A stretch of 32,000 nt of DNA, taken from NCBI RefSeq assembly GCF_000007145.1, contig NC_003902.1, forward strand, positions 370,325 to 402,324, read 5' to 3'. The DNA comes from Xanthomonas campestris pv. campestris str. ATCC 33913. Its GTDB lineage: Bacteria > Pseudomonadota > Gammaproteobacteria > Xanthomonadales > Xanthomonadaceae. Numbering within the stretch: position 1 is the stretch's first letter; every line of letters begins with the position of its first letter. Below, piece after piece: positions 2,416 to 32,000 of the stretch. The notes under the pieces are model-generated. The model searched no databases, was not told the DNA's origin, and saw nothing but the letters and a program-made list of their open reading frames with translations. Both the position numbers and the translations under genes were made by a program.

Positions 2416-4956
2416 TCAGAAGTGGTAGGTCACCACCAGCCGGGTGTTGCGCTCGTAGATCGGCCGCCCGTAGATGGGTTCGCGCGTGCCTTGCCCGGAG
2501 ATGGTATCGGTGCGCGGGTTGCCTTCGGTCAGCGCAAAGGCGTTGGTGAGATTGTCCACCGCCAGCTGCACATCCCACGGCCCGTTGCGCACCAGGATGT
2601 TGGCCGCCAGCGTGTGATAGGCGGCCAGTTCGGTGGTGTTTTCCAGGTCGGCGTAGCGCTTGCCCACGTAGGCGTAGCGCAGCGAGGTATCCCAATCGAA
2701 TGCGCCGGTGCTGAACAGCAGCGTGGGCCCGACGTTGCCATAGAGCTTGGGCTGGCGGTTGGGCATGTTGCCGTCCACATCGACCACCGCCACCGCGCCG
2801 TTGGCCACCACTTCGGTCAGGTCGGAGACCTTGGTGTCGTTGTAGGTGACATTGGCATCCAGGCGCAGCCACTGCGCTGGCGTCCACACCGCGGCCACTT
2901 CCACGCCCGGGTTGGTGACGCTGCCACGGTAATCCTTGGACTCGGCCGCACCAGTCAACGGATTCACCGCGCTGGTGCCGATGTTGTACGGGTCGTACTT
3001 GGTGTAGAAGGCCGTGGCGAACACATCCAGCGTGGCGAAGTTGAGCTTGGTGCCCAGCTCGTACTGCTCGGCGGTGGGAATGTTGACGTTGCCTTCGTTG
3101 GCGCCCTCGCTGGGCGCGCGGTGCGCACGCGAGGCGCGGCCGTAGACACCGACAATCGGGGTGAGGTCGTAGTTGAAGCCGGCGGTCCAGTTGGTCACGC
3201 CCACATCCAGCGCGGTCTGCGTGCGGGCACCGGTGAACAGCCGTGCGGCATCGTCGGCCAGGGTGTCTGGCATGCCCAACGTGCCGGTGGTGCGGGCCAT
3301 GGCTCAGGCGCGGTAGCGATAGCGCTCGTGGCGCACGCCGCCTTCCAGGCGCAGCTTGTCGGTCACCTGCCAGGTATCGGCGATGTAGGGCGCCAGCATG
3401 CTGGTGTAGGCCTTGCCCTGGGTGCGGTCGGCGCCGTAGATCACCACGCCGTCCTGGGTGACGCCGCCGACAACCGCACCATTGGCGTCATAGCCGAGCA
3501 GGTCGATGCTGCGCGGGTTCTGGCGCATTTCAAACAGATAGCTCTGGTAGCGCGAATTGTAGGAACGCGCGTAATAGGCGCCATACAGGCCCAGCGTGAT
3601 GTCGTGGGTGTCGCCGCCCCAGTCGAAGCTGCGGTGCAGGCGCAGATCGTCGGCGATGGAATCGGCGCGCACATCCATCGCACGGTACTGGCCCTGGATC
3701 ACCAGCCCGTCGGTGCTGGCCGGATCGAAGCGGCTGCCATCGTCGGTGTACACGTAGCCCAACCGCGACAGGCCCGGAAACGCTGCGCTTGCGGCCGCAC
3801 GGCGGCTGTTTGCATAGGCGGTGGCATCCTGCGGCGCGTTGCTGGAATACAGCGCGTCGAAGGTCATGTCCAGGCGATTGACCACCGCCTTGTTGGACAG
3901 GCTCCAGCCGTTGTCGAAGGCCAGGTCCAGGTTCGCGCCCAGATGGTTGAATTTCATGTGGCGGCCATCGGAGAGATCGCGCGCCTCGCGTTGCGGCTGG
4001 CCATTGGCATCGCTGGAAATGAGCGTGGCGTGCTGCAGTTGCGGCGCGCTCAAGGTGCCGGTGAAGCGGTCGATCAACGGGTCCAGCGACCGCGTGGTGT
4101 CGCGCGGGTCATACAGCGGGATCGGCATGTAGAACGCGTTCTTGTCGTCCAGATGCTTGGCGGTGAAGGTGATCTTGCCGTGGTCCAGCGTGTGCGTGAG
4201 GTTCATGCGGAACTGGCCGCCCTCATCGGCAGGAAAGCCCACATCCCGGTAACCATCGTTGCGGCGCACGAAGCCGCCGGCGGCCAAGTACCAGTCCTGC
4301 GCCAGCTTGCCCGACCAGTAGCCATCGAGCCGGTACAGGCCGGTATCGCCCACGGTGGTGCGCACTGCGCCTTCGGGCGTGTCGCCGCCCTGGCGGGTGA
4401 CGAAGTTGACGATGGCCGCGGCATTGGAGGCGAAGATCGGCGAGGGCCCGCCGCGCACGGTCTCCACCGATTCGACCATCACGTCTGGCCGCACTAGCCC
4501 TTCGGTCTTGTAGAAGTAGCCGTTGTTGTCCGGATACGGGCTGATACCGTCTTCCTGGATCACCGCGAACGAGCCTTCATCGGGGATGCCGCGGATGCGG
4601 TACACGTTCTGCACTTCGCCGCCGGTGGATTCGGCGTAAATGCCCGGCATCGAACCGATCAGGCTGGTGAGGTTGAGCGGCGCCAGTTTGTCGATCTGTT
4701 CGGCGGTCATCGAGGTGATCGCATAGGACGCTTCGAACTGGCTCTGTGCCTGGCCGGCACCGGTGACGATCATGCGGTCGAGCGAAAAGATGCCGTCGTC
4801 GGCCGCACGTGCCGGCGGTGACGCGGTGGTCTGCTGCGCCAGCGCCGGGCCGGCAAGCGTGGAGGCAAGTGCGAGGGACAGGCAAAGACACAGCGGGGCG
4901 CGACGCAGTCCGGAGGCGATCCGGATGTCGGTGGTTGGCATGGCGGGCATGGGCAA
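2416..4956 (-). pseudogene. TonB-dependent outer-membrane receptor interrupted by a single in-frame TGA (3304-3306)
   Basis: ORFs 3304..4956 and 2416..3300 are in the same frame ((4956-3300) is divisible by 3). The minus strand reads ...HERYRYRA-TGA-A-MARTTGT.... The N-terminus has a signal peptide and plug motifs (DRMIVTGAG, ETVRGGPSPIF); the C-terminus ends ...VVTYHF, the canonical terminal aromatic of TBDR barrels. Confidence 0.8.
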
Positions 4957-5559
4957 GCGGGGGAGCGCGTCACTTTCGCGATGTCATATTGCAGATGCGT
5001 TGCGTGTGCGGCAGATCACGCAAAAAAGCCGGTGCAGTGCCTGGAACTGTGACGTATGCAGGCTTTACTTCGCTCTGTCATCGGCGCGTCCTGCGCTGGC
5101 GCTCGCATCGGCTGCGGCGTTGCACTTTGCATCAGTGATGGTGGCGTTCGCCAAGACGGTTGAAACGCAAGATTCAGCGTGCAGGTGGAGGTGAACGCCG
5201 CGCCTAACGCGCGCAGCGTGCAGCCAGGAGACGAGCGCAACCGTGATGCAGGCAGATGCGCCTGTGCTTGGAATCGCACCGCGCACCCCAATTGAAAAGC
5301 CATCTCCCGTGGCGTCTTTGCATCGTGAATCGCTTTGCGTCATCTCCCGTCCCATACACCTCGCCACTGCGCGCGTCCGTGGCAACGTGGGCATGAAGGA
5401 TCGGCCTGCCAGGGTGCGCAACCAGCGCCTGCGCGCCGCGTGTAGCCCACTGCCGCCGCACCGGCCAGCGCTCACCGCAGCGCCTGAACGTGTTGCACCG
5501 CTACAGGCACGCGCGCGGGTGTTGTTGCACAGTGACCACACCATGACCGGAGTTGCACG

Positions 5560-6489: not shown

Positions 6490-7620
6490 ATGGGCATCCC
6501 TACGTCGCGTGTGGATGTCGCCTTGAGCCAGTTGTTCACCCCCATCAATTTTGGTCCGCTTGCGCTCGCCAACCGCATTGTGATCGCGCCGATGTGCCAG
6601 TACTCCGCACAGGACGGCCGCGCCACCGACTGGCATCGCATCCACCTGGGCACGCTGTCGCAATCCGGTGCCGCGCTGTTGATCCTGGAAGCGGCCGCGG
6701 TGCAGCCGCAGGGCCGTATCTCCTACGCCGACCTGGGCCTGTACGACGACGCCACCGAGCAGGCGCTGGGCGAGGTGCTGGCATCGGTACGGCGTTGGTC
6801 GCCGATGCCGATCGGCATCCAGCTGGCACATGCCGGGCGCAAGGCCTCCACCGATCTGCCGTGGAAGGGCGGCGAGGCGATTGCTCCCGACCATGCCAAT
6901 GGTTGGCAGACCGTGTCCGCCTCGGCACTGCCGTTCCGCGATGGCCAACCGCTGCCGCAGGCGCTGGACGCCGCTGGCATCGATGCGGTGGTGGAGGCCT
7001 TCGTGACCGCGGCCAAGCGCGCCGAACGCCTGGAGCTGCAGCTGATCGAACTGCATGCCGCGCACGGGTACCTGATGCATCAGTTCCTGTCGCCGCTGAG
7101 CAACCAGCGCAGCGATGCGTACGGCGGCTCGCTGGACAACCGCATGCGGCTGACGCTGCGCATCTTCGATGCGGTACGCGCGGCGGTGTCTGACCAGATG
7201 GCCATCGGCGTGCGCATCTCGGCCACCGACTGGGTGGATGGCGGCTGGGACCTGCCGCAGAGCATTGCGTTGTCCAAGGCGCTGGATGCGCGCGGCGCGC
7301 ACTACATCCACGTGTCCAGTGGCGGGCTGGACCCGCGCCAGCAGATTCCGGTGCAGGCCAGCTACCAGATACCGTTTGCCGAGGCGATCCGCGCGCAGGT
7401 GGACACGCCGGTGATCGGCGTGGGCCTGATCACCGAACCGCAACAGGCCGAAGCGATCCTGCGCGATGGCCAGGCCGATGCGATCGCGCTGGCGCGCGGC
7501 ATCCTCTACGACCCGCGCTGGCCGTGGCACGCCGCCGCCGCGCTGGGCGCATCGGTCACCCCGGCGCCGCAGTACCAGCGCTGCGAACCGCGCGAAGCGC
7601 GTGGCGTGTTCGCCAGCTGA
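6490..7620 (+). CDS. NADH:flavin oxidoreductase, Old Yellow Enzyme family
   Basis: LFTPINFGPLALANRIVIAPMCQY, QLAHAGRKAS, ELHAAHGYLMHQFLSPLSNQRSDAYGGS and ARGILYDPRWP are OYE signatures. The start is uncertain: TTG 6463, ATG 6490 or GTG 6511. Confidence 0.85.
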   Translation: MGIPTSRVDVALSQLFTPINFGPLALANRIVIAPMCQYSAQDGRATDWHRIHLGTLSQSGAALLILEAAAVQPQGRISYADLGLYDDATEQALGEVLASVRRWSPMPIGIQLAHAGRKASTDLPWKGGEAIAPDHANGWQTVSASALPFRDGQPLPQALDAAGIDAVVEAFVTAAKRAERLELQLIELHAAHGYLMHQFLSPLSNQRSDAYGGSLDNRMRLTLRIFDAVRAAVSDQMAIGVRISATDWVDGGWDLPQSIALSKALDARGAHYIHVSSGGLDPRQQIPVQASYQIPFAEAIRAQVDTPVIGVGLITEPQQAEAILRDGQADAIALARGILYDPRWPWHAAAALGASVTPAPQYQRCEPREARGVFAS

Positions 7621-17080: not shown

Positions 17081-17674
17081 ATGACTGTCAACGTGCCACA
17101 CCCACTCCGCATCGTTGCGGTGTCCGGCGGGATGCAACGCCCCTCCAAGGCGGCCGCTCTGGCCGAGCACCTGCTGGCATTGATCGCCGCGCAGGTGCCG
17201 TGCGAACAGCATCTGGTGGAACTCGGGGCATTGGCACCGCAGTTCGCGGGTGCGCTCTGGCGCTCCCAGCTGTCCGCAACGGTGGAGCAGGAACTGGTCG
17301 CGGTGGAGCAGGCCGATGTGCTGGTGGTGACCACGCCGGTGTATCGCGGCTCCTTCACCGGGTTGTTCAAGCACTTCTTCGACTTCGTCCATCAAGATGC
17401 CTTGATCGACACGCCCGTCCTGTTGGCGGCCACCGGTGGCAGCGAGCGGCATGCGTTGGTGATCGACCACCAGCTGCGGCCGCTCTTCAGTTTTTTCCAG
17501 GCCCGCACGTTGCCGCTGGGCGTCTATGCAACCGACCGGGATTTTCTGGACTACCGCGTGCACAACGAGGCCCTGGCCGAACGCGCCAGGCTAGCGGTGC
17601 AGCGGGCATTGCCGCTGATCGCAGTGACGCGGCAGGCCAGCGCCATCGCAAAAGAAAACGTGGCCGCGGCTTGA
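17081..17674 (+). CDS. NAD(P)H-dependent FMN reductase (SsuE/MsuE-like)
   Basis: LRIVAVSGGMQRPSK, VVTTPVYRGSFTGLFKHFFD and LAATGGSERHALVIDHQLRPLF are flavodoxin-like FMN_red signatures. Confidence 0.85.
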   Translation: MTVNVPHPLRIVAVSGGMQRPSKAAALAEHLLALIAAQVPCEQHLVELGALAPQFAGALWRSQLSATVEQELVAVEQADVLVVTTPVYRGSFTGLFKHFFDFVHQDALIDTPVLLAATGGSERHALVIDHQLRPLFSFFQARTLPLGVYATDRDFLDYRVHNEALAERARLAVQRALPLIAVTRQASAIAKENVAAA

Positions 17675-17843
17675 GGGCCACTTGCCCACGGGCGCCTGGC
17701 TTGCCACCACGCCGCTGGCGGGCCACCGGGTCCGTTGGCGAATTGCTTGCCGGTCCAGCGTCCCTGCCTCCATCCAGCCAGCATCAACCGCTGCGCTGAA
17801 AACTGCGTTCGTATTGATTTCGAGAACAAGGCGTCAGTGTGCA

Positions 17844-18863
17844 ATGACTCAAGAATTGACCTTCAGCATCAAGAGCCTCCGCTTCGATGAGGACTACCGT
17901 CCCGCGGCCAATACACGCAACACGACGAACTTTGCCAACCTGGCCAGAGGGCAGCGTCGCCAGGAGAATTTGCGCAACACGCTGGCGATGATCAACAACC
18001 GCTTCAACGACCTGGCGCATTGGGATAACCCCAAGCGTGACCGCTACGCTGTCGAACTCGACATCATCTCTGTCGAGATGAAGATCGGTGAGCGCGACAC
18101 AGGCGATGCATTCCCGTTGATCGAGATATTGCAGCCCAGCATCCTCGATCAAACAACCGGCGCGCGTATCGACGGCATTGCAGGGAATAATTTCTCCTCC
18201 TATGTGCGCGACTACGATTTCAGCGTGCTGCTGCCAGCGCACAATCAGGACACATCCAGCTTCAGCCTGCCGGAGGGGTTCGGCAGCCTGCATGGCACGC
18301 TGTTCAAGCAGTTCGTGAACTCGGATACCTACACGGCGCGGTTCGCCAAGCCGCCGGTCATCTGCATCAGCGTCTCCAGCAGCAAGGTCTATCACCGCAC
18401 CGGAAACCGCCACCCCATCCTGGGCGTTGAATACAGGCAGGACGCATTTTCGTTGACGGATCAGTACTTCGAAAAAATGGGCCTGCAGGTGCGTTATTTC
18501 ATGCCGCCGAACAGTGTCGCTCCCTTGGCGTTTTACTTCCTCGGCGACCTGCTGAACGACTACACCAATCTGGAGTTGATCGGCACCATCAGCACCATGG
18601 AGACCTTCCAGAAGATCTACCGGCCGGAAATCTACAACGCCAATTCCGCCGCGGGGACCATCTACCAGCCGAGCCTGAAGCATCAGGATTACTCCGCGAC
18701 CCAGATCGTCTACGACCGGCAAGAGCGCAGTCAGCTCGCGGTGACGCAGGGCAAATTTACCCAGGAGCATTTCATCAAGCCCTACGGGGACATTCTTGAG
18801 CAGTGGGCCTCCAGCCACGCTTTCTCGTCAACACCAACGCAAGACATTGCCCATCATGAATAA
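17844..18863 (+). CDS. DUF1852 family protein (MesD accessory protein)
   Basis: Start at ATG 17844 (MTQELTFSIKSLRFDEDYRP...), 339 aa. I recognise it as the DUF1852 family that co-occurs with short MetE-like synthases. Its stop at 18861-18863 overlaps the next gene by 8 nt. Confidence 0.7.
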   Translation: MTQELTFSIKSLRFDEDYRPAANTRNTTNFANLARGQRRQENLRNTLAMINNRFNDLAHWDNPKRDRYAVELDIISVEMKIGERDTGDAFPLIEILQPSILDQTTGARIDGIAGNNFSSYVRDYDFSVLLPAHNQDTSSFSLPEGFGSLHGTLFKQFVNSDTYTARFAKPPVICISVSSSKVYHRTGNRHPILGVEYRQDAFSLTDQYFEKMGLQVRYFMPPNSVAPLAFYFLGDLLNDYTNLELIGTISTMETFQKIYRPEIYNANSAAGTIYQPSLKHQDYSATQIVYDRQERSQLAVTQGKFTQEHFIKPYGDILEQWASSHAFSSTPTQDIAHHE

Positions 18864-19887
18864 GCTGCTCCCCACCTCCACCGCCGGTAGTTTGCCCAAG
18901 CCGTCCTGGCTCGCGCAGCCCGAGAAACTCTGGTCGCCCTGGAAGCTGCAGGACGAGGAACTGACCGAAGGCAAGCAGGACGCGTTGCGCCTGTCGCTGC
19001 AGGAACAGCAGCACGCCGGTATCGATATCGTCAGCGACGGTGAACAGACCCGCCAGCATTTCGTCACCACCTTCATCGAACACCTCAGCGGCGTCGATTT
19101 CGAAAAGCGTGAGACCGTGCGCATTCGCAATCGCTATGACGCCAGCGTCCCGACCGTTGTTGGCGCGGTGAGCCGGCCCAAGCCCGTCTTCGTGGACGAT
19201 GCCAAGTTCCTCCGCCAGCAAACCCGGCAGCCGATCAAATGGGCGCTGCCCGGCCCGATGACGATGATCGATACCCTTTTTGATGCGCACTACAAAAGCC
19301 GCGAAAAGCTGGCCTGGGAATTTGCGAAGATCCTCAATCAGGAAGCCAAAGAACTCGAAGCTGCTGGCGTGGATATCATCCAGTTCGACGAGCCGGCCTT
19401 CAATGTCTTCTTCGATGAAGTCAACGACTGGGGCGTTGCCACGCTTGAACGCGCGATCGAAGGGCTCAACTGCGAGACCGCCGTCCACATCTGCTATGGC
19501 TACGGCATCAAGGCCAATACCGATTGGAAGCAGACGCTGGGCTCGGAGTGGCGTCAATACGAAGAGTCGTTCCCCAAGCTGCAGGCATCCACTATCGACA
19601 TCGTCTCGCTGGAGTGCCACAACTCGCATGTGCCGATCGATCTGATCGAACTGGTGCGCGGCAAGAAGGTCATGGTCGGCGCCATCGACGTGGCAAGCAA
19701 CACGATCGAAACACCGCAGGAGGTGGCCGACACGCTACGCAAGGCGCTTCGGTTTGTGGATGCCGACAAGCTCTACCCGTCCACCAACTGCGGCATGGCG
19801 CCGCTCGCCCGGCACGTCGCACGCGGCAAACTCAGTGCCCTCAGTGCGGGTGCAGACATCATTCGCGCAGAACTGTCGGCGCAGTAG
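18856..19887 (+). CDS. mesD: core (catalytic-domain-only) cobalamin-independent methionine synthase, MesD-type
   Basis: 343 aa, starting MNKLLPTSTAGSLPKPSWL. It resembles only the MetE C-terminal domain: Zn ligands HIC (VHICYGYG), E (SLECH) and C (STNCGMAP). The N-terminal folate-binding half of MetE is absent. ATG 18856 lies inside the DUF1852 stop region. Confidence 0.8.
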   Translation: MNKLLPTSTAGSLPKPSWLAQPEKLWSPWKLQDEELTEGKQDALRLSLQEQQHAGIDIVSDGEQTRQHFVTTFIEHLSGVDFEKRETVRIRNRYDASVPTVVGAVSRPKPVFVDDAKFLRQQTRQPIKWALPGPMTMIDTLFDAHYKSREKLAWEFAKILNQEAKELEAAGVDIIQFDEPAFNVFFDEVNDWGVATLERAIEGLNCETAVHICYGYGIKANTDWKQTLGSEWRQYEESFPKLQASTIDIVSLECHNSHVPIDLIELVRGKKVMVGAIDVASNTIETPQEVADTLRKALRFVDADKLYPSTNCGMAPLARHVARGKLSALSAGADIIRAELSAQ

Positions 19888-20290
19888 CGCACTGGTGATT
19901 TCGATGGATTGGCTGCCGTCGCATGTGCCGCGCGCTCAGCCTCATGAGGTGGAATCAGGTCGTTTGCGTGTCGAGTGTGCCGCGCGCGTACCTAGGCTGA
20001 GGCATGGTAGCTAACACCGCATGTGATGCTCGGCTGCCATGTGCAACGTCGATCAGGGCCCATGGTTGGCTCCCAGTCCGGGAAGATGGTAGGCCGATAG
20101 TGGGTGTGGCCTGGTTAAACCCTTGCTGCGAGGACTTGCTCGTCAGCGCCATCACTGGCCTTGTTAGGAACTGCACGCGCGGGGCGGCTACGTAACCCCG
20201 CAAGTGAAAAAGCTGCGAATTGAACGCGTTACATGTGGCTAACATTTGGTTGATGTGCGGTACCAAATGGTGCAGAATTTCGCCAACACA

Positions 20291-20343
20291 CCCGCCACGC
20301 CTCTACAGCTTCTGCTGAAAGCGCAATTTGGCGGGTTTTTTTT
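20291..20343 (+). terminator. stem plus T8 tract just upstream of the Abi gene
   Basis: CCCGCCA (20291-20297) pairs with TGGCGGG (20329-20335), followed directly by TTTTTTTT (20336-20343). The loop is long at 31 nt, so this is weak. Confidence 0.3.
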
Positions 20344-20369
20344 GCCTTTGGCACAGGGAGGTGGGGACA

Positions 20370-21290
20370 ATGCAGTACATGAAGGAGGCGTTGGACTACG
20401 CCCAGCAGATTCAGCAGTTGCAGGACCGAGGTCTCGCAATCGCCGATCCCGTCACAGCAGAACTCTATCTGCGGAGGGTTGGTTACTACCGCCTGATGGG
20501 CTATCTGTTTCCTTTGCGAGTTGCAGGCAGCGATACCTATCTGCCGGGCGCGAGCATGGACATCGCGCTCGGACTTTACGAGTTTGATCGTCTTCTGCGC
20601 CATCTTGTAGGCGAAGCCATTGGACATATTGAAGTGGCCACTAGGACGGCAGTGACCTATAAGCTGGCTCACGCCTACGGCAGCTTTGGCCATCGCAACG
20701 CGGCTAATTTCAGGGCAGACGGTGGGGACCGGCGCAGTTTGGGTAATTGGCACGTAATCTGGCTAAGAAAGGTCGACGACGAGGTCAGCCGTGCCCGGGA
20801 GACGTTCATAGAACACTACAGACAGCGATACACCACCCCACCTTTCCCTGAAGTGCCCATTTATATGGCCAGTGAGGTGATATCACTTGGCACGCTGTCC
20901 AAATTGGTGCGTGCCATGCATGGCGTGGATCAAACCGCAATTGCCGCTGAATTTCAGACGGCTGGACCGGTTTTGGTCAGTTGGCTTCATGCCGTCTCCG
21001 TGGTTCGCAACATGGCGGCGCACCATGGTCGGTTGTGGAATCGAGTTCTTGGCGTGTCGCCGATGATTCCCAGGCACGGGATCTGGGCGAGCGCGTCGTC
21101 GGTGGTTCCAGCAAATCGCCTATTTTTTGTGCTGTGCGTGTTGCATCACCTGCTCAAAAGCACTGCGGCCAATGTTACGCACTGGCGGACGACTGTCAGC
21201 AATCACCTGCGCCCTCTTCTGGTCGACGCGTCGCATAGAGCCGGCATGGGAGCCCCGGACAACTGGGAGACGCACGCGCTGTGGAGATGA
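20370..21290 (+). CDS. Abi_2 (AbiD/AbiF-like) abortive-infection family protein
   Basis: Start at ATG 20370 after GGGAGGTGGGG. YLRRVGYYRLMGYLFP and VVRNMAAHHGRLWNR are hallmark Abi_2 motifs. GC is clearly lower than in the flanks. Confidence 0.8.
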   Translation: MQYMKEALDYAQQIQQLQDRGLAIADPVTAELYLRRVGYYRLMGYLFPLRVAGSDTYLPGASMDIALGLYEFDRLLRHLVGEAIGHIEVATRTAVTYKLAHAYGSFGHRNAANFRADGGDRRSLGNWHVIWLRKVDDEVSRARETFIEHYRQRYTTPPFPEVPIYMASEVISLGTLSKLVRAMHGVDQTAIAAEFQTAGPVLVSWLHAVSVVRNMAAHHGRLWNRVLGVSPMIPRHGIWASASSVVPANRLFFVLCVLHHLLKSTAANVTHWRTTVSNHLRPLLVDASHRAGMGAPDNWETHALWR

Positions 21291-21377
21291 GCAATGAGCT
21301 GCCAAGCGGTTGGCGCGCGGGCATGTTGGCAACGGCCGCCCGATAGCGCGTTTGAAGTGTGTGTGTAGCCCCGGTTG

Positions 21378-21412
21378 TCGAGTTGCGCGCTGCGCGCGAC
21401 CGCGCAACTCGA
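21378..21412. terminator. hairpin between convergent Abi and porin genes
   Basis: TCGAGTTGCGCG (21378-21389) and CGCGCAACTCGA (21401-21412) form a perfect 12-bp stem with an 11-nt loop. Confidence 0.45.
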
Positions 21413-21488
21413 TGTCTTACACGCAATGCCACCAAAACAGGGAACTTCCGTAGTACCAGGTTCAGGGTAGTTACATCAGCTCAGTGAA

Positions 21489-22928
21489 TCAGTAATTGAC
21501 CTGCAGCTGCAGCCGCAGCAGATCGCCTTCGACTACCGGATACGGCGCAGTGGTGACGTCGGTGCGCTTCATCTTCGAATAGGCGAAGACCAGTTCCAGC
21601 GCATCCATCGGCTGCCATTCGACGCCGGCTTCCACTTCGTCCAGGCGCATGCGCGGCGCATTGGTATCGAACTTGGAACCGCCACGGTAGGTCTGCCACT
21701 TGAGGTAAGGCAGCAGCGTGCCGTAGTTGAAGTCGTGCTTGAACATCGCCTGCACGTAACCGCCGCTCAACGAACGCGTGCGGATACGCCGCTGCGCCAC
21801 GTCCAGCTCCGGGCCGCGGCCCACGGTCCACTCGGCCTGCAGGCCAAACGGCTGCGGGTAATAGATGATGTGCGCGGCCACGCGTTGATCGGTGTAGCCG
21901 TTCGGCTCGGTGATGGTCGGGGTGAAGCTGCGGCCACCGATGTTCACCGCTGCCGCCGTCGGCACGAACTTGCCGGCGTAGGCATCGGCGCCCACTTCCA
22001 GGTACTGGCCGTTGGCGAGCTTGAACGGGTAGGTGGCGTGCACCACCGCATGCATGCCGTCGTTGCGCTCGGCGCGGTTGGCGCCCTGGCCGTTGTACAC
22101 ACCGGCACCGAGCACGCCGTAGTCGCCCGAGCCCTTCAGGCCGGATTTGACCAGGTCCTGGAAGCGTCCCTTGGCCACCGTGGGGCTGTAGTAGAACACC
22201 GCGCCGATGTCGCGTTCGTCGCGCAGGCCGGAATTGAGCGCGTCGGCTCGGTCCAGCGTCAAGCGGTTCTGGCTGGACTGCAGGTTTTCCCAGCCGTAGG
22301 GCATCTTCGACTGGCCCACGCGCACGCGGTATTCGCGCTTCTTGTCGAAGAAGATGTCGGCGTAGGCATCGCGCAGCTGCGCGAAGTTGGAGGTGGTCGA
22401 ACCTGTCGGGGTGCTGGCGAAATCGGGCTGGAAGTACAGCGACACGTGCTCGTTGAGATCGCCGCTCAGCACCAGGCGTGCACGGCGGATGCCCAGGCTC
22501 TGGTCATTGCCGATGAAGCGGTCGCCGGGCGCACGCAGGTCCTGCGCATCGCCACCGATGCCCTGGTTGTAGCGGATCTGGGTGTAGCCGCGCAGGCTCA
22601 ACTTGTCGTACCACTTCTTGGGCGCGTCGCTGGCGGCGGTCGGCACGGGCGCGGCCGCCGGAGCAGGCGGCGCTGCCTGGGCCACGCCGGTGCTGGGCGC
22701 GGTGGCCGTGACTGGTGCCGCGGGCGCTTCAGGCAAGGCGGATGCCGGCAGCTTGCCGTTCTCGTCCACCTGCACGAACTTGCCCAGCTTGTCGCGCCCG
22801 GGTGCTGGCTCGGCAAAGATCTGCTTGGTCTTGCGGTCGACGTACAGCTCCAGCTCGGCGGCCAGCGTGCTGCCGCTGGCGGTCGCGCTGAGGGCGCACA
22901 GGACGGTGGCGAGATTGCGTTTTTTCAT
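21489..22928 (-). CDS. phosphate-selective porin, OprO/OprP family
   Basis: Signal peptide MKKRNLATVLCALSATASGSTLA, a Pro/Ala-rich linker, then WYDKLSLRGYTQIRYN...RRARLVLSG...FQPDF and a C-terminal ...LQLQVNY barrel terminus. Confidence 0.85.
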   Translation of the reverse strand: MKKRNLATVLCALSATASGSTLAAELELYVDRKTKQIFAEPAPGRDKLGKFVQVDENGKLPASALPEAPAAPVTATAPSTGVAQAAPPAPAAAPVPTAASDAPKKWYDKLSLRGYTQIRYNQGIGGDAQDLRAPGDRFIGNDQSLGIRRARLVLSGDLNEHVSLYFQPDFASTPTGSTTSNFAQLRDAYADIFFDKKREYRVRVGQSKMPYGWENLQSSQNRLTLDRADALNSGLRDERDIGAVFYYSPTVAKGRFQDLVKSGLKGSGDYGVLGAGVYNGQGANRAERNDGMHAVVHATYPFKLANGQYLEVGADAYAGKFVPTAAAVNIGGRSFTPTITEPNGYTDQRVAAHIIYYPQPFGLQAEWTVGRGPELDVAQRRIRTRSLSGGYVQAMFKHDFNYGTLLPYLKWQTYRGGSKFDTNAPRMRLDEVEAGVEWQPMDALELVFAYSKMKRTDVTTAPYPVVEGDLLRLQLQVNY

Positions 22929-23692: not shown

Positions 23693-24580
23693 TCAGCCCG
23701 CCGGCTGCGCCGCCAACGCAGCGGCAATGGTGGCGCGCAGCGGGGTGGTGGGGCGGCCGATCAGCTTGCTCAAGGTGTGGCTGTCGTCGAACAGGCTGCC
23801 GCCGCCTGCGGACGCCGAGCACTGCGCCAGTACCTGGGCGAAGCCGGCCGGCAGCCCGGCCTGGACCAGGGCCGCGGCATAGTCCGCCTCCGGCATGTCG
23901 TGGTAGGCCACCGGCTTGCCCGCCTGCTGCGCCAGCTCGGCGGCGTAGTCGGCCATGCTGAAGGCTTGATCGCCTGCCAGCTCGTAGATGCGTCCGGCCT
24001 GCGGTTCGGCGGAGGCCAGTACTGCCGCCGCGGCGGCCGCGTAGTCGGCACGGGTTGCCGCGCTGATCCTGCCATCGCCAGAGCTGCCGATTACCGCGCC
24101 GTGCGCCAGTTCCGGGCCGATCGAGCCGGTGTAGTTCTCGGTGTACCAACCGTTACGCAGCAGCACGTGCGGCACGCCGCTGTCGCGCAGCAGTGCTTCG
24201 GTGGTCACGTGCTCGCCGGCCAGCGAGAGCGTGCTGGTGTCCGCACGCAGCACGCTGGTGTAGGCGAGCAGGCCCACGCCGGCACGCTTGGCGGCCTCGA
24301 TCACGTTGCGGTGCTGCTCCACGCGCGCGCCCACCGCGTTGGAGGACACCAGCAGGACCGTGCCGACCCCGGCGAAAGCGGCGTCCAGCGAGGCCGGGTC
24401 GGCGTAATCGGCGCGACGTACGCTGATGTCGCGTTTTGCGAATGCCGACAGTGACGCGGTCTCGCGCGCGGTTGCTACGATGCGGCCGGCAGGCACACGC
24501 TCAAGCAACGCATCGACGATCAGCGCTCCCAGGTGTCCGCTGGCGCCGGTGACAAGAATCAGGGGGGAGGTGTGTGCCAT
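23693..24580 (-). CDS. NmrA/SDR-family NAD(P)H-binding oxidoreductase (quinone oxidoreductase 2-like)
   Basis: ILVTGASGHLGALIVDALL Rossmann motif, about 295 aa with atypical-SDR architecture, divergently paired with an HxlR regulator (a common arrangement). Confidence 0.8.
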   Translation of the reverse strand: MAHTSPLILVTGASGHLGALIVDALLERVPAGRIVATARETASLSAFAKRDISVRRADYADPASLDAAFAGVGTVLLVSSNAVGARVEQHRNVIEAAKRAGVGLLAYTSVLRADTSTLSLAGEHVTTEALLRDSGVPHVLLRNGWYTENYTGSIGPELAHGAVIGSSGDGRISAATRADYAAAAAAVLASAEPQAGRIYELAGDQAFSMADYAAELAQQAGKPVAYHDMPEADYAAALVQAGLPAGFAQVLAQCSASAGGGSLFDDSHTLSKLIGRPTTPLRATIAAALAAQPAG

Positions 24581-25813: not shown

Positions 25814-26314
25814 ATGTCCTTAGTCGGTTCCTCCTCACCCGCCGCCCGGCGTACCGCCGGCGTCGCCTTGCTGGCGCTGTGGTGCGGTTGGATCGCCGTT
25901 GCCTGGACCACGCCGCAGGCTGCTGCTGCCGGCGACGCCGCCAGCGCCTGGGCGCGCGTGCAGGCCAGCCTGCCGGCGCTGTCGACCGCACCAATGCTGG
26001 TCGGCGTCGTGGGTGCCTGCACCTGCGACGGCGCCGCCGATGCACGTGCCTGGGCGTTATTGAGCCAGGCGGTTCGCGCGCGCGGCGGGCGCGTCCAGCA
26101 GATCGATGTGCCGGCCCTGCATGGCAGCGGCTATGCGGTGTGGCTGCTCGGCGCCGATGGCCAGCCGCGCTATGCGGGCCCCGCGCAGGGCAGCGCGGTA
26201 TGCGGGCGTGCCGGTGCGGCAGAGTGGCCGCGTTGGCTACCGCAGGTCCTGGCACGCCCGGCGGATGTCGCGCTGGTGGCACCGTGCGCCTGTGCTGCGG
26301 GGGTGTCGGCATGA
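25814..26314 (+). CDS. hypothetical exported/membrane-anchored Cys-rich protein
   Basis: 166 aa. N-terminal anchor [17 protein letters not shown]; two CxC motifs ([15 protein letters not shown]) plus one further Cys. The stop TGA (26312-26314) overlaps the chemoreceptor ATG (26311) as ATGA. No family recognised. Confidence 0.5.
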
Positions 26315-28422
26315 GCAGCACCGCAACGCACGCACCCACCGCGCAGCTGGCCTCGGGCTACGCCAACCGGCTGGCGATCAAGGCCGACCGTCTCTTTCTC
26401 TGGCTCGCCACCTTACAGAGCGCTGGCTCGCTGGCGCTGGCCTGGTATCAGGGGCAGTGGACGCCCTTCCTGGCGGTCACGCTGCCCAGCCTGCTGCTGA
26501 TGCTGTGGCAGGCGCGCTTCAATCCCGGCACGCGGCTGACCAGTGTGACCACCGCGCTGGTGCTGATGGCCTTGGTGGCTGCCACCATCCAGCAGGCACA
26601 CGGGCTGGTGGAAATGCACTTCGGCGTCTTCGTGATCCTGGCGCTGCTGTTGTATTACCGCGACTGGCTGCCGGTGGTGGTAGCCGCCGCTGCGATTGCC
26701 GTGCACCACCTCGCGTTTTACTGGCTGCAGGCGCGTGGTCTGCCGGTGCAGGCCTTCAGTGCCGGCAGCGGGTTCGGCATCGTCGTGCTGCACGCCGGCT
26801 ACGTGATTGTGGAAACCGCCTTCGTCTGCGTCATGGCCGTGCAACTGCGACGCCAGCTGGACGCGCTGGACCACGAAGCAGAGGCGCTGGCGCAGCTTGC
26901 CGACACGCTGGCCAAGGGCGACGCCTTGCCGCCTGCCATCATGCAGCAGCACTTTCGTGCCGGTTCGCTGGCGCAGGCGCTGGTGCGCATGAGCGCGCAG
27001 GTGCAGGAACGCATCACCACGCAACAGCAGCTGCTGCAGGAAAACCGCCGGATTCGCCTGGCACTGGATGCCTCGGCCATGGCTGTGGCCATTGTCGACA
27101 CGCAGGGCGATGCGATCTACCGCAATCACTCCTTCGCACAATTGAGCGCGCGCAGCGATGCACACACCGTGCAGCAGGCGCTTGCCGAGGCCGCACAGCG
27201 GCGTGCTGTCGAAAGTGGCGCAGGTGCGCGCGCGCTGGGCGCACTGCAGCTGCAGGAGAGCGTCACGCCCGTGCACGATCACGACGGCACGCCACTGGGC
27301 GTGGTGGTGGAATGGCAGGACCGCACCCAGTCCTTGTTGCTCGAAGCGCAACTGACCACCGTGATTGCGCAAGCCACCCGCGGCGAGCTCGGCGCGCGGC
27401 TGCATGGGCATGCGCACGACAGCACCTTGGGCCAGCTGGCCGAAGGCATCAATCGCTTTCTCGCGGTTACCGAAGACAGCTTGCAGGACATGCGGCGCAT
27501 GCTGGCGGCACTGGCGCACGGCGACCTGTCGCAACGCATCGATCGCCCCTGCGAGGGCGTGTTCGACCACATGAAGCGCGATGCCAATGCCACGGCCGAT
27601 GCGCTTGCCCGCATCATCGTGCAGATCCGCAGTTCCAGCGGCGCCATCAATGCGGCCACCGGCCACATCCTGCACGGCAACGACGCACTGGAGCAGCAGG
27701 TGCGGCGCCAATCGATCACGCTGGGCGAGGCGGCGCAACAGATGCAGGCCGTGCTTGGCACCATGCAGCAGCACAGTGCGCAGGCAGCCGATGCCGATGT
27801 GCTGGCTGCCGCCGCATCGGAAGCGGCACGTGCAGGCGGCGACACCATGGGCAAGGCGATGGGCACCATGCAACAGATGGAAGCCGCCTCGCGGCGTATC
27901 CAGGACATCATCGCCGTCATCGATGGGTTGGCCTTCCAGACCAACATCCTGGCGCTCAACGCTGCCGTGGAAGCGGCGCGTGCAGGCGACGAAGGTCGTG
28001 GCTTTGCGGTGGTGGCCAGCGAAGTACGCGCGCTGGCACTACGCTCCTCCACCGCCGCCAGCCAGATCAAGGCGTTGATCGGCGAGTCGGTGGCGCACGT
28101 TGAAGCAGGTGTGCAGCAAGTACGCAGCGCTGGTGCCGGCATGCAGCACATCGTGACCACCATTGGCCAGGTGAGCAGCACGCTGAGCACGATTGCGGTC
28201 GCCTCCGAGCAAGAGGCCGGCAGCATCGCGCAGGTGCATCAGACCTTGAGTCGCGTGGATATCGACATGCGCGACGGCGTGCTACGCATGCAGGAGGCCA
28301 GCACCGCCGCGCGTGCCATGGGCGACCATGCCGCACAGCTGGAAGATGCAGTGAGCCTTTTTGTGGAAGACGCAGCGCCCACAGCGCAGAGTGCTGCAAG
28401 ACAGGCACGCCATGCCGCGTGA
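26311..28422 (+). CDS. methyl-accepting chemotaxis protein with 6-TM membrane-embedded N-terminal domain, PAS and HAMP
   Basis: ATG 26311 is in frame with ORF 25657..28422. Six predicted TM helices carry His residues ([32 protein letters not shown]). The PAS-like region is [29 protein letters not shown]...VVEWQDRT. The MA domain is [43 protein letters not shown]. Confidence 0.85.
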
Positions 28423-28441: not shown

Positions 28442-28902
28442 TCACCAACGCGGCGTCACCCGGCAATACGCGGCGTAGGCGGGGCCAAACTGCGCCGCCA
28501 ATGCGCGCTCCTCCGGCAGGACCTGGAGCCGCGTGATTGCCAGCACGTAGGCACCCACCAGAACCAGGGCGGCGTCCTGCTGCAGCGACACGATCCAGCC
28601 GCCCAGCAGCAGCGCATGGCCGAGATACATCGGGTTGCGGGTGTAGCGATGCAGGCCGTGGTTACCAGCTGTGTTGCACGCTGCGGCGCGAGCGGGTTGA
28701 TCGTGGTCCCGGCGCTGGCAAATGTCAGCTTTGGAAGCACATTCAACGCGATGCCCCCGAGCACACAGGTGCCGGCCATCAACATCCGGCCCGGCAGCGG
28801 GAGCGCGATGCCCGGTAACAGCGCTGCCGTGCCGGCGGCGATCACGCCCAGCAGCACTAGCAGCACAGGCGGTGGAACGCGTGTTTCTAGCCGTTGCAGC
28901 AT
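28442..28902 (-). pseudogene. isoprenylcysteine carboxyl methyltransferase (ICMT)-family membrane methyltransferase with a -1 frameshift near 28654-28658
   Basis: The N-terminal 80 codons come from ORF 28456..28902 (...APQRATQLVTT). The C-terminus comes from the frame of ORF 28442..29350 (...GLHRYTRNPMYLGHALLLGGW...VLPEERALAAQFGPAYAAYCRVTPRW). Inserting one G in ACGGCCTGC to give ACG GGC CTG restores LVTTGLHRYTRNPMYLG, the family motif. Confidence 0.7.
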
Positions 28903-28986
28903 CCAGACGCTCTACCGTGCTCAGTGCCGCAGGGAAGCCGGCGGTGACATGCCTGCAATCTTGCGCGTCATCGCTCGGCCGAGGTA

Positions 28987-29364
28987 TCAACTGCCGGAGG
29001 CCGGCGTGCCCTTGCGTAATGCGCGCAGCTTGCCGGTGAACCAGGATTGGCTCGGTACCGCCGCTGCCCCGCCACATCGCACCTCGTACGGCTTGCCCGA
29101 CATGCTGCTCTTGGTCGCAGCAAGTTCGATAAAGGATTCGGTGCTGGTGACCAGGCCCTTCTTCTGCAGGTAGTCGTACTTGCGTTGCAAATGCTCGCTG
29201 GCCTTGGGCGCCGAATACCACGACCCGTTGCGCGAGAACTCGCAGTTGGAGTTCTTCAACGCTGCGAACAGTTGGTTGATCTCCCGTGTCGTGGCAGGAG
29301 CTACGCCCTGCGCAAACGCCGATCCCGACACCAGCAAGCAGATGAGCCACACTTTATTCTTCAT
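28987..29364 (-). CDS. DUF5329-like small secreted protein
   Basis: Start at ATG 29364 gives MKNKVWLICLLVSGSAFA (signal peptide). EINQLFAALKNSNCEFSRNGSWYSAPKASEHLQRKY...FIELAATKSSMSGKPYEV matches my memory of DUF5329. Confidence 0.6.
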   Translation of the reverse strand: MKNKVWLICLLVSGSAFAQGVAPATTREINQLFAALKNSNCEFSRNGSWYSAPKASEHLQRKYDYLQKKGLVTSTESFIELAATKSSMSGKPYEVRCGGAAAVPSQSWFTGKLRALRKGTPASGS

Positions 29365-29598
29365 CGTGAATCCATTCGCCAAGCGTTGTTTCGGAAGATG
29401 CGAAGCATAGGCCAGATCAGCAGTGCCAGTATCGCTTTGCAGCCGCTGCCGTGCAGCGGGATCTGGCGCGTGGACGGCTGAATGATTGCGTGCGCCCAGA
29501 GCCACGGCGTCGCATGGGCGAAGGCTCACAACACCCTGCAGCACTGCGCCTCGGCGCGACCGAAGCTTCGCCGCTCTGATGCGCCGCTCGACCGTTCT

Positions 29599-29985
29599 CT
29601 AGGCAGCGCGTTCGCGCAGCTGGGAGACATTGCCTTCCGGGTCAACGGCATTACAGGCAACGAAGCCAGGGCCGCGCCACTGCGCTGGCAGAATTTCGCC
29701 GCCAAGCGCAGCTGCAAGCTCGACGAGCTGCGCGATGCTCGGGACGGTGAAAAAGAACTTGAGCGCGGTGTTCTCACGCCGGTTGGGCGGATCGGCGATG
29801 GTGATGGAGGCGGCGATTGCCTCAGGTACGGCATGGATGACAAGTTGCAGCGCGGCTGCGTTCAGCACAACCAATTCCTTGCTGGAATGGATCGCCTGCA
29901 TACCCAGCACGCGCTGGTAAAAAGCCGCCACACGCTCAAGATCCTTGGCATAGATAAACAGGCCGGAGCTGGCAGCTTGTGACAT
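29599..29985 (-). CDS. VOC/glyoxalase-family protein
   Basis: 128 aa from ATG 29985. GLFIYAKDLERVAAFYQRVLGM...ALKFFFTV...FVACNAVDPEGNVSQL fits the paired beta-alpha-beta-beta-beta VOC fold pattern. Confidence 0.7.
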   Translation of the reverse strand: MSQAASSGLFIYAKDLERVAAFYQRVLGMQAIHSSKELVVLNAAALQLVIHAVPEAIAASITIADPPNRRENTALKFFFTVPSIAQLVELAAALGGEILPAQWRGPGFVACNAVDPEGNVSQLRERAA

Positions 29986-30052
29986 GGCATGACCTCGGGT
30001 CTGGTTGGCAGCGCCTAGTCTGCCCCAACAATGCTCCAGGCAAGAACTAAGA

Positions 30053-30190
30053 GCGGCTAACAAAACGTAGCGAGCAGCCGTCAGGTGGGTGCGGACGGCG
30101 CGGAGGAACCGCAGTGTACGGGGGTACATGCGGATTCCGAGCGCCGGCCGCGCCCGCCTGACGGCTGCGCAGCAGTTTTGACAGCTGCTC
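30053..30190. repeat. long imperfect palindrome (about 138 bp) in the spacer upstream of the VOC gene
   Basis: The 21-nt arms 30074-30094 and 30148-30168 pair completely if two T.G pairs are allowed. The interior folds further (CGGCGC/GCGCCG, GGAA/TTCC, CCGCA(G)TGTAC-GGGG-GTACATGCGG). The outer flanks GGCTAACAAAAC and GTTTTGACAGCT are partly complementary. Confidence 0.6.
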
Positions 30191-30199
30191 TGATTACCA

Positions 30200-30246
30200 G
30201 GCAAAGCTACGCAAAATTCAAGCCTCAGCCCGCTAATAGCTTTGCC
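30200..30246. repeat. hairpin with attC-right-half-like interior (possible decayed attC)
   Basis: GGCAAAGCTA (30200-30209) and TAGCTTTGCC (30237-30246) are complementary. On the minus strand the element (loop plus 3' stem arm) reads GCGGGctgaGGCTTgAATTttGCGTAGC. This is block-colinear with GCGGGtcGGCTTAATTcagGCGTTAGGC of the attC at 31763-31822. Confidence 0.3.
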
Positions 30247-30282
30247 TACCGCGACAGCAGAGACGCCGTAAGCAGATGCGGC

Positions 30283-31074
30283 TCAGGGATCGGCTGGCGT
30301 ATATCGCAGCAGATCGCTGCCGACAAAGTAGTTGCCGTAGTACTCGTTCTTTCGAAGGCCGGGGTGTGCTGCAAAGTCGATATAGGGCGCAGCGCAGTGT
30401 GGGCAGCGGAACGGATTCATATAGCGATAGGCCGACCCATCCGGTGCCAGCGGAAGCCGTTCTTCCAGTGCATGCAGCTGCTCGGGGTCCGGCTCTGTCA
30501 ATGCGGCCGGACTGCCGGCAATGTGGTCCTCCACCGTGATGGTGTACCTGCCGGATTCCGAGTAGAAATAGCCCGCGTTGCTGAAGCCGGCGTGGTAGGA
30601 ACGGATCAGGAAAGAACGTTTGCAGTGGTCGCATTCACAGGAAAGCAGTACGTTGCCGCCGGTGACTAGTCCACTGAAGTGCAGACCCCTGGCAAAAAGC
30701 CCCTTGCCTGCAAGTGCGGTACTGCTGACGCTGGCGCCCGGCAGGAAGAACGGCTGAAATCTGATCCCGTCTGCGTGCCCATTCGCAAACGCGTCTGGAT
30801 CGAGCTGCTCGGTCTGGGAAATGACACAGTCTGCCTGGCACCCCAGGTTGGGATGTACGCGAATGGAGAAGTGGAACCATCCTGTTGCAGCACCAAGTTC
30901 ATGCCGATGCACACCTCCCGCCGAGTCGGTAAATTCCAGGACGCTATCGGCTTTCAACCATGCGGAAGGCTTGATCTCACACGGGACATCACTCTGGCTA
31001 ATGCGACACAACTCCCGCCCATCGGCACGAACAATCAGTAATGGAGCGGCTTGCTTCTTGAAGATGGAGAACAT
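30283..31074 (-). CDS. hypothetical protein with a putative C-terminal zinc ribbon
   Basis: ATG 31074 is preceded by AAGGAA. 263 aa, with Cys clusters CECDHC and CPHC about 70 aa apart. No recognisable family. Confidence 0.6.
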   Translation of the reverse strand: MFSIFKKQAAPLLIVRADGRELCRISQSDVPCEIKPSAWLKADSVLEFTDSAGGVHRHELGAATGWFHFSIRVHPNLGCQADCVISQTEQLDPDAFANGHADGIRFQPFFLPGASVSSTALAGKGLFARGLHFSGLVTGGNVLLSCECDHCKRSFLIRSYHAGFSNAGYFYSESGRYTITVEDHIAGSPAALTEPDPEQLHALEERLPLAPDGSAYRYMNPFRCPHCAAPYIDFAAHPGLRKNEYYGNYFVGSDLLRYTPADP

Positions 31075-31139
31075 GCGTTCCTTGACGGTAATGCTGGAAT
31101 GACAGATTGGAGCGCTGGCGCGAGCGCAGCAGAACAATT

Positions 31140-31598
31140 TTAGCTCTTCAAAACGTCAGACGCCGCGCTTGCCCTCGACGTTTTCCTCTTGAAGGCCATA
31201 CCTACACTGGCAGGCGCAGTCAACGCAAAACCGAACTGCTGGTAGAGCTTATACGCCGCACCATCCGCAATCAGGCTGACATACGCAGACGCAGGTACTT
31301 CGCGTTCTATGTAGCTTGCGATCTCACCCATGACAGTCTTGCCCAGACCACGGCCCTGATGTGCTGGCAAAACCGCAATGTCCACCACCTGATAAAAACA
31401 GCCGCCATCGCCGATGACGCGCCCCATCGCTACCGGCTCGCCATCGCAAAGCACCTGCACGCTGAACAGCGAGTTGGGCAACCCGCGCTCGGCCGCTTCC
31501 AACGCTTTCGGGCTCAAGCCGCTTGCTTGGCGAAGATGACGATACGCTTCGATAGTCGGCGTTTGATGTACGACACGATACAGGGATGATGAGAGCAT
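31140..31598 (-). CDS. GNAT-family N-acetyltransferase
   Basis: 152 aa. The acetyl-CoA motif A is VLPAHQGRGLGKTVMGEI, followed by YKLYQQFGF (motif B). Confidence 0.85.
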   Translation of the reverse strand: MLSSSLYRVVHQTPTIEAYRHLRQASGLSPKALEAAERGLPNSLFSVQVLCDGEPVAMGRVIGDGGCFYQVVDIAVLPAHQGRGLGKTVMGEIASYIEREVPASAYVSLIADGAAYKLYQQFGFALTAPASVGMAFKRKTSRASAASDVLKS

Positions 31599-31610
31599 GA
31601 CGGGAGTGCT

Positions 31611-31757
31611 TTAGGGATGGTCTGAATTTGATGGTGTTGTTACCAGTTCTTGGAAAAGGCCAATGACCGTAGCAAGCTCTGGATTATTCAAGGGCGCCAT
31701 ATCACGCGCGGATGCGGTGAGTGGCAAGAGCAAAGGAAGTAGTACGAGAAGTCTCAT
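31611..31757 (-). CDS. possible 48-aa signal-peptide-bearing cassette ORF
   Basis: MRLLVLLPLLLPLTASARD.... The ATG lies 5 nt after the attC core site, and no Shine-Dalgarno sequence is visible. Speculative. Confidence 0.25.
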   Translation of the reverse strand: MRLLVLLPLLLPLTASARDMAPLNNPELATVIGLFQELVTTPSNSDHP

Positions 31758-31762
31758 CAGAG

Positions 31763-31822
31763 GCCTAACGCCTGAATTAAGCCGACCCGCGAAGCGGGTT
31801 CGGCTTGAATGAATTGTTAGGC
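31763..31822 (-). mobile_element. integron attC (59-base element) recombination site
   Basis: The minus strand reads GCCTAACAATTCATTCAAGCCGAACCCGCTTCGCGGGTCGGCTTAATTCAGGCGTTAGGC. The inverse core RYYYAAC and the core GTTRRRY sit at the two ends. The internal imperfect dyad has one unpaired A. The length is 60 nt. Confidence 0.8.
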
Positions 31823-32000
31823 ACTGCCGACACCTACAACAACGCCGATTGCCGGTGTGGTTAGGAACCAGACACCTGGCAGCCAGACGAGCTTGCGTGC
31901 CCGAAGCCACAGCGGTTTGAGGTGGGGCGGGATAGTAGACGACGGCTGTGTGATCCAGCTCAGCTCACAAAAATTGTTGTGGTAGCCAGGACCAAGACCA

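Follow-up and report, generated by a model that had tools for sequence, protein, structure and literature searches.

A probable terminal attC site in the chromosomal integron of Xanthomonas campestris pv. campestris and a possible fossil end of its cassette array

The subject of this study is a 60-nt element on the minus strand of Xanthomonas campestris pv. campestris str. ATCC 33913, at 31763-31822 of a stretch of 32,000 nucleotides (NC_003902.1, forward-strand positions 370,325 to 402,324; hereafter the window). The element was read in an initial annotation as an attC recombination site, and it is considered here together with the run of small genes on its left, at 28442-31762, called the tail below. 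In Xanthomonas, a sedentary chromosomal integron downstream of ilvD was reportedly described by Gillings et al. 2005. In the available sections of a recent comparative survey, the chromosomal integron is found downstream of ilvD in nearly all Xanthomonas, and X. campestris is given 3-29 attCs with an intI which is usually intact (Colombi et al. 2025, PMC12444791). For strain 8004 (GCA_000012105.1) a complete integron with 22 attCs downstream of ilvD is listed there, and for strain B100 17 attCs (PMC12444791, Table S1). The same sections mention genes 'without recognizable attCs' for X. cucurbitae, encoded in other integrons that are placed downstream of ilvD, and they contain no discussion of a tail lacking attCs on the hxlR side of the last attC (PMC12444791). 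In addition, aadA1a, aadA2, catB3, aadB and other resistance cassettes are reported to carry attCs of Xanthomonadales type (PMC8352920).

The attC of the window belongs to the very locus of these reports, with ilvD, intI and an array of attCs of about 60 nt, and the site itself is no different from the others. In the sedentary chromosomal integron of X. campestris pv. campestris it is very probably the last attC, at the end distal to intI. Published work has already covered the integron at ilvD in Xanthomonas, the homogeneity of its 60-nt attC family and the origin of the aadA-, catB3- and aadB-type attCs in Xanthomonadales; as an ordinary part of a known integron, the window attC therefore carries little weight as a discovery.

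The 60-nt element and the array beside it

The 60-mer GCCTAACAATTCATTCAAGCCGAACCCGCTTCGCGGGTCGGCTTAATTCAGGCGTTAGGC is read on the minus strand from 31822 to 31763. It was found to occur a single time in the window when up to three mismatches were allowed, and none of 100 shuffles gave a match. Its ends are formed, on the minus strand, by the R'' box GCCTAAC at 31822-31816 (RYYYAAC) and the R' box GTTAGGC at 31769-31763 (GTTRRRY). Between these boxes lies the L''/L' dyad, in which positions 13-29 of the 60-mer pair with positions 33-47, the spacers being 5 and 6 nt. Two bases of the top strand, C16 and A23, are bulged, and these correspond to a G and a T on the bottom strand, which is the plus strand of the window. 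DNA folding gave -18.1 kcal/mol on either strand, with a z score of about -6. The length, the position, the strand and the terminal RYYYAAC and GTTRRRY boxes are exactly as described in the initial annotation. Its imperfect dyad with an extrahelical A was also recovered (A23), whereas the single bulge was not, C16 being bulged as well.

The covariation alignment comprised 17 distinct 60-nt members, namely 15 from X. campestris arrays, the attC of the aadA1 cassette and one attC from plasmid pKPN5. Across these members the R''/R' and L''/L' structure was paired in 97.3% of the cells, against 21-45% in slid registers, and the L''/L' helix taken alone was paired in 96.9%. Compensatory change was seen in 7 pairs changed on both sides, with 30 such cells, and none of 500 shuffles reached as high a value; these figures come from 17 sequences that are mutually related, and the structure was taken from one among them. 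The inner stem was found in the variants AACCCGC/GCGGGTC, AAGTTGC/GCAACTC, ACGCCGC/GCGGCGC, AACTGGC/GCCAGTC and ATACCGC/GCGGTAC, with the R boxes and both bulges remaining constant. The compensatory stem differences which had been noticed in the initial annotation are borne out by these 17 members. A covariance model (R1) built on this alignment, and thus specific for the Xanthomonas attC family, matched the window attC with 91.8 bits (E value 2.7e-22). When all 32 kb were searched with this model with its filters off, no other match at E < 1 was obtained except for the reverse reading of the same attC.

Over its final 10,861 bases the window matches CP000050 (X. campestris pv. campestris 8004) with 100% identity and other strains with 98.6-99.97%. 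The CP000050 locus (L002) and the loci of three B100-type strains (L001, L006 and L008) are cited below by positions within each locus. Beyond the right edge of the window, over 10 kb of L002, there are small ORFs (open reading frames) on the same strand, each of which is then followed by a close relative of the 60-mer. With the covariance model and a core-site regular expression, at least 19 same-strand attCs were identified in positions 199-9836 of L002, the last of which is the window attC. The TAA stop codon of the 133-aa ORF that precedes this site lies inside the R'' box (GCC-TAA-C), as is common for cassettes. The 133-aa protein has shown no family match and no NCBIfam match. The attC that bounds this cassette upstream differs between 8004-type and B100-type strains, and the cassette therefore behaves as a discrete unit. 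To the right of it, the content differs among 8 X. campestris loci and changes at exact attC boundaries.

In the B100-type strains the array ends in a divergent 327-aa tyrosine recombinase which adjoins ilvD. This IntI (L006 940-1923, opposite strand) scored 514 bits against TIGR02249, 'integron integrase', for which the cut-off is 265. In these sister strains intI is placed 7-9 kb past the window edge, beside ilvD. The initial annotation had assigned the attC to a chromosomal integron, expected intI to the right of the window adjoining ilvD, and proposed a look for further attC copies on the contig. The at least 19 same-family, same-strand attCs in the adjoining 10 kb (L002) and the ilvD-adjacent intI of the sister strains agree with all of this. 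It had also taken the attC to head a cassette array extending leftward, and here the direction has to be reversed: the site is terminal, the array lies wholly to its right and the attC belongs to the 133-aa cassette.

Several attCs of the array (L006 2412-3152; in L002, for example, 1028-1111, 4344-4427 and 7144-7227) are preceded by a conserved 24-nt extension, ATCCAACCTTTGCGGCCACTCACT. The attCs extended in this way recur every 340-341 nt, a spacing that suggests a single very short cassette present in tandem or dispersed copies. ORFs of 87-93 aa were called on the opposite strand across them and may be repeat artefacts.

Genes to the left of the last attC

The features of the window which are discussed here are collected in Table 1. 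For the GNAT, VOC and DUF5329 genes, the names given in the initial annotation were supported by Pfam, whereas the 263-aa protein is without a family and the ICMT-like gene is frameshifted. The small ORF next to the attC is probably no gene. It sits in a 164-nt segment (31599-31762) that separates the last attC from the GNAT gene; neither a Pfam match nor a homologue beyond X. campestris was found for it, and it is uncalled in 8 genome annotations. Its ATG was correctly placed by the initial annotation 5 nt after the core site. A truncated DUF5329-like gene was considered for this 48-aa ORF and rejected, as the similarity to DUF5329 N-termini is weak and insignificant (E value of about 1-2) and there is no Pfam match at E <= 1.

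Table 1. Features around the last attC of the window (window coordinates; L002, locus of CP000050)
Feature	Position	Strand	Remarks
3' part of last true cassette ORF, 133 aa, running off the right window edge	31817..32000	minus	gene call L002 9381-9782
Terminal (intI-distal) attC, very probable	31763..31822	minus	core sites, fold, covariation, covariance model
48-codon ORF	31611..31757	minus	ATG at 31757-31755, 5 nt past GTTAGGC; GC3 0.43
GNAT N-acetyltransferase, 152 aa, first gene past the last attC	31140..31598	minus	Pfam PF00583/PF13508
CxxC-rich ('Zn-ribbon') hypothetical protein, 263 aa	30283..31074	minus	no family assignment
147-bp imperfect palindrome, dispersed Xanthomonas repeat	30047..30193	unstranded	sX9 small RNA at 30055-30129, minus
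VOC/glyoxalase-fold protein, 128 aa	29599..29985	minus	Pfam PF18029
DUF5329 secreted protein, 125 aa	28987..29364	minus	Pfam PF17263 129 bits; NF007648 291 bits
PEMT/ICMT-family methyltransferase pseudogene	28442..28902	minus	1-nt frameshift near 28660; two overlapping reading frames
Convergent chemoreceptor (MCP) gene, left bound of the run	26311..28422	plus	about 80% identity across species

The frameshift of the PEMT-like gene is a 1-nt deletion in the run ACCACGG/CCTG (the slash marking the place), and it is identical in all 8 X. campestris loci. On insertion of one G, a 153-aa PEMT-like protein is restored which matches PF04191 over positions 3-103 of 105 with 36 bits. In genome annotations this gene has been called as a 182-aa or a 62-aa product. 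The GC content of the GNAT, Zn-ribbon, VOC and DUF5329 genes is 57-61%, in agreement with the value of about 58-62% given at first for the tail genes, whereas the ICMT-like gene, with 66-69%, departs from it. The GC content at third codon positions (GC3) rises with the distance from the last attC, being 0.43 in the 48-codon ORF, 0.63 in the GNAT gene, 0.65 in the Zn-ribbon gene, 0.69 in the VOC gene, 0.79 in the DUF5329 gene and 0.75-0.85 in the PEMT-like gene, compared with 0.80-0.89 in the flanking core genes. This is the order that would be expected if cassettes farther from attI are older and have been ameliorated for longer.

On balance, the tail genes are probably very old cassettes which have lost their attCs and are now fixed chromosomal genes. 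The fuller course of events, which we favour by a slight degree, is that of a fossil distal end of the array, in which the attCs were lost, the GC content was ameliorated by age and the genes were fixed lineage-specifically, followed by a later invasion of sX9 and the decay of one gene by frameshift. This proposal draws on a scan of one genome per species, anchored on the NmrA-like gene (23693-24580 in the window), on which the X. campestris proteins and then the attCs were mapped. The locus has shown genus-wide synteny, with ilvD, intI and the array followed by hxlR, nmrA and a porin gene. In X. maliensis the gap between ilvD and hxlR is 1.35 kb and integron-free, and in X. prunicola, X. bromi and X. 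axonopodis the attCs reach to about 150-200 nt from hxlR. A block comprising the Zn-ribbon gene, DUF5329, MCP (about 80%) and p166 separates the last attC from hxlR in two Leaf isolates as well as in X. arboricola, X. hortorum, X. pisi, X. dyei, X. cannabis, X. euroxanthea and X. vesicatoria. The Zn-ribbon gene, at 72-86% identity in more than 10 species, is always placed just beyond the last attC and has DUF5329 as its conserved neighbour. At the equivalent position GNAT was found only in part of the X. arboricola strains (pathovars populi and corylina), and VOC between the Zn-ribbon gene and DUF5329 only in X. campestris. The distances separating the Zn-ribbon gene, DUF5329 and MCP range from about 30 nt to 2.1 kb across species. 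Xanthomonas sp. Leaf148 (L022) has a pair of degenerate attCs of the family in the interval from DUF5329 to MCP, at 4883-4941 and 5236-5298, and behind them come two small ORFs of 140 and 141 aa. One attC of the pair scored 21.9 bits and retains CAAGCCGAA...CGGC..TTCAG, and the other is the half-site GTCTAACAACGCATTCAAGCCGA. This pair is the only direct trace found of an array that once reached beyond the Zn-ribbon and DUF5329 genes.

Homologues of the VOC, Zn-ribbon and GNAT genes were also inspected in three contexts each for attCs beside them. VOC homologues (60-63% identity) carry an attC on both sides in all three contexts, in X. vesicatoria, X. arboricola and Pseudoxanthomonas composti. 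A Zn-ribbon homologue (62%) lies within an attC array in Rhodanobacter, this being one context out of three; near those of Ralstonia and Idiomarina no attC was found by the family-specific model. One of the three GNAT contexts, that of a 67% homologue in Pseudoxanthomonas mexicana (CP157201.1, L103 4911-5438), has the gene starting 33 nt past the last attC of the array, whose R' box has decayed to CCAAGGC in place of GTTAGGC, and this position directly past the last array attC parallels that of GNAT in X. campestris. The surroundings of the GNAT homologue in Stenotrophomonas humi yielded no attC.

A number of results weigh against this account of the locus. The L002 sequence reaches about 9.6 kb past the window edge, and intI and attI in strain 8004 itself rest on the sister strains and on the published table. 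In 28442-31762, no attC was detected at E < 1 by the covariance model with its filters off, by a sequence-only nhmmer profile, or as a RYYYAAC...GTTRRRY pair by regular expression; the covariance model is family-specific, and attCs from a very different family could escape it. In a further test, 20 attCs were aligned semi-globally to the 130 nt after each stop codon and compared with dinucleotide shuffles. The GNAT, Zn-ribbon, VOC, DUF5329 and ICMT-like genes gave z scores of -1.2 to 0.5, no better than the shuffles, whereas the true 133-aa cassette gave 23.6; for the 48-codon ORF the score was 2.35, with 5 of 200 shuffles as high. All 8 X. campestris loci, which represent two clades at 98.6-100% nucleotide identity, agree in the order of the tail. 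Moreover, the divergence of the Zn-ribbon gene, DUF5329, MCP and p166 (72-86%) is comparable to that of the NmrA core gene (81-87%), a core-like value which fits long vertical inheritance and would fit an ordinary flank as well.

A decayed attC had been picked out by eye past the VOC stop codon (GCCTAG...GTTGTGAGCC, about 82 nt, 29520-29604) and was set aside as unproven, since it gained significance neither from the covariance model nor from nhmmer nor from the alignments compared with shuffles. The place is the one where the homologous VOC cassettes carry their attC.

In weighing the alternatives, the nature of the 60-mer itself leaves hardly any room for doubt. A chance palindrome, a repetitive extragenic palindromic (REP) element or a transcription terminator could also give a stable hairpin right behind a stop codon; such an origin is of negligible probability, as there is no T-run behind the hairpin, the R and L boxes are conserved, the bulge positions are fixed and the stems covary. 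Dozens of copies on the same strand, one small gene apart and beside an integron integrase, as well as the near-identity with attCs of clinical cassettes, argue for a recombination site in the same way. It is also very improbable that the site heads a live or partly live leftward array whose six small genes are still IntI-mobilisable cassettes. Such an array would explain why the six genes share the cassette orientation, are small and lower in GC and begin with an ATG 5 nt past the core site. Against it, four methods gave no second attC to the left, all the other attCs lie on the right side, and the tail keeps an identical gene order and sequence in 8 strains despite extensive differences between their true arrays. 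The comparison of cassette presence and absence across strains which the initial annotation had suggested gave no variation of the tail among 8 X. campestris genomes; its gene content varies solely between species, and the GNAT protein sequence is identical in many X. campestris pv. campestris genomes. The six leftward ORFs, being without an attC of their own and invariant in 8 strains, are by definition no cassettes today.

What these genes were in the past is less sharply decided. They may represent an ordinary chromosomal flank that was never part of an integron and that owes its low GC to unrelated horizontal acquisition. The lack of detectable attC remnants in the tail is what such a flank would show, as are the Zn-ribbon/DUF5329/MCP/p166 block in more than 10 species at core-like divergence, the location of MCP and p166 on the opposite strand, and the wide occurrence of the GNAT family in Stenotrophomonas and Pseudomonas, with the attC-free surroundings in S. 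humi. This explanation is nevertheless considered rather unlikely. It does not account for the block being missing where the array abuts hxlR and in the integron-free X. maliensis, for the decayed attCs of Leaf148 distal to DUF5329, for VOC and Zn-ribbon homologues in attC arrays elsewhere, VOC even as attC-bounded cassettes, for slots between the tail genes that differ in length and content among species, or for the GC3 gradient. It is the VOC, Zn-ribbon and GNAT homologues, the Leaf148 attCs, the hxlR arrangements and the GC3 gradient taken together that make the fossil origin the likelier of the two. The partly decayed array ending at the chemoreceptor gene which the initial annotation had proposed is thus plausible through the cross-species comparison, with nothing of it visible within the window.

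The 147-bp palindrome between the Zn-ribbon and VOC genes is a separate element. Its DNA fold has -64.7 kcal/mol (z score -12), and it contains a match to the sX9 family (Rfam RF02228; 95.2 bits, gathering score 44). A long attC was considered for it and rejected, as it scored just 10 bits against the attC model and is a dispersed repeat matching sX9. Copies were found in both orientations and at unrelated sites in several Xanthomonas species, one of them between ilvD and intI (L001 789-925, B100-type). Because of this dispersal, the sX9 'sRNA' family (small RNA) may be a mobile palindrome resembling a REP element or a miniature inverted-repeat transposable element (MITE). In another part of the window, 17500-21500, the GC content falls to 56-60% compared with about 65% overall. 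On the far side of this stretch (locus positions above 20,200), an Abi_2 gene is present in 8004-type loci and metE in B100-type loci. The stretch appears to be a further variable island with no relation to the integron. A weak, partial attC-like nhmmer match at 20692-20714 (E value 0.057) is probably due to chance.

Mobilisable part of the array and comparison with known integrons

In integrons, the R and L boxes each bind one IntI monomer, and an extrahelical G and T impose the choice of strand. For the window attC, the bottom strand (plus strand of the window) would be expected to fold, when single-stranded in replication or conjugation, into a hairpin of R and L boxes with its two extrahelical bases. 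IntI would recognise this hairpin and cut between the G and the TT of the R' box. Recombination of the window attC with the attC upstream would then excise the 133-aa cassette as a circle, and recombination at attI would put it back at the head of the array. The active array would thus extend to the right, with about 20 attCs within 10 kb and then attI and intI beside ilvD. The DNA to the left of 31763 would not be mobilisable by IntI, because there is no partner attC on that side.

The window attC is of use as a precise annotation of where the mobilisable array of strain 8004 has its distal end. What is modestly new is the comparative case that the stable genes past the last attC are, probably, domesticated cassettes. 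If the fossil tail is true, it would provide a dated, stepwise example of how a plant pathogen takes integron cassettes into its core genome by domestication.

Close relatives of the window attC were also found on plasmids. The aadA1 attC quoted in the initial annotation is identical in 60 of 60 positions to the real one of the aadA1 cassette on plasmid CP024250.1 (dfrA1-aadA1-qacEdelta1-sul1; L010 2499-2558), and the gap-free alignment of the window attC to it gives 50 identities in 60. The identity and the bulged A in the same place, as stated there, are both exact against this record. Two attCs of the array (L002 2624-2683 and 4028-4087) have the aadA1 inner stem ACGCCGC/GCGGCGC. Matches to the 60-mer occur in 3,755 plasmid records, under catB3, aadA16, aadB and aadA1 cassettes. 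By these plasmid matches and the published assignment (PMC8352920), the clinical attCs of aadA type, which had been said to resemble those of Xanthomonas, belong to the same family. The attCs of aadA1 and aadA2 in class 1 integrons are like the window attC in their 60-nt length, the R''/L''/L'/R' layout, the bulge positions and the compensatory differences in the stem. The window attC differs from them in its setting, which is a chromosomal array of a plant pathogen, and in standing behind a gene for a 133-aa protein and not behind a resistance gene.

The closest match among 72,556 plasmid records, with 58 of 60 positions, is the attC of a YciI-family cassette on pKPN5 of Klebsiella pneumoniae MGH 78578 (NC_009651.1, L009 3501-3560). 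Since this attC is closer than that of any resistance cassette, the match suggests a very recent Xanthomonas-like source for the YciI cassette, and it fits the published view of Xanthomonadales as a source of clinical cassettes. Unlike the window attC, it is carried by a mobile class 1 integron (intI1, aadB, DUF1010, YciI, cmlA5, qacEdelta1, sul1) in a clinical enterobacterium. In the sedentary state of its array, the Xanthomonas system is of the same kind as the superintegron of Vibrio cholerae, a chromosomal integron with many cassettes of unknown function and homogeneous attCs typical of the species, the VCRs (Vibrio cholerae repeats). The VCRs, at about 120-130 nt, are unrelated in sequence to the Xanthomonas attCs, and the arrays of Vibrio are far longer.

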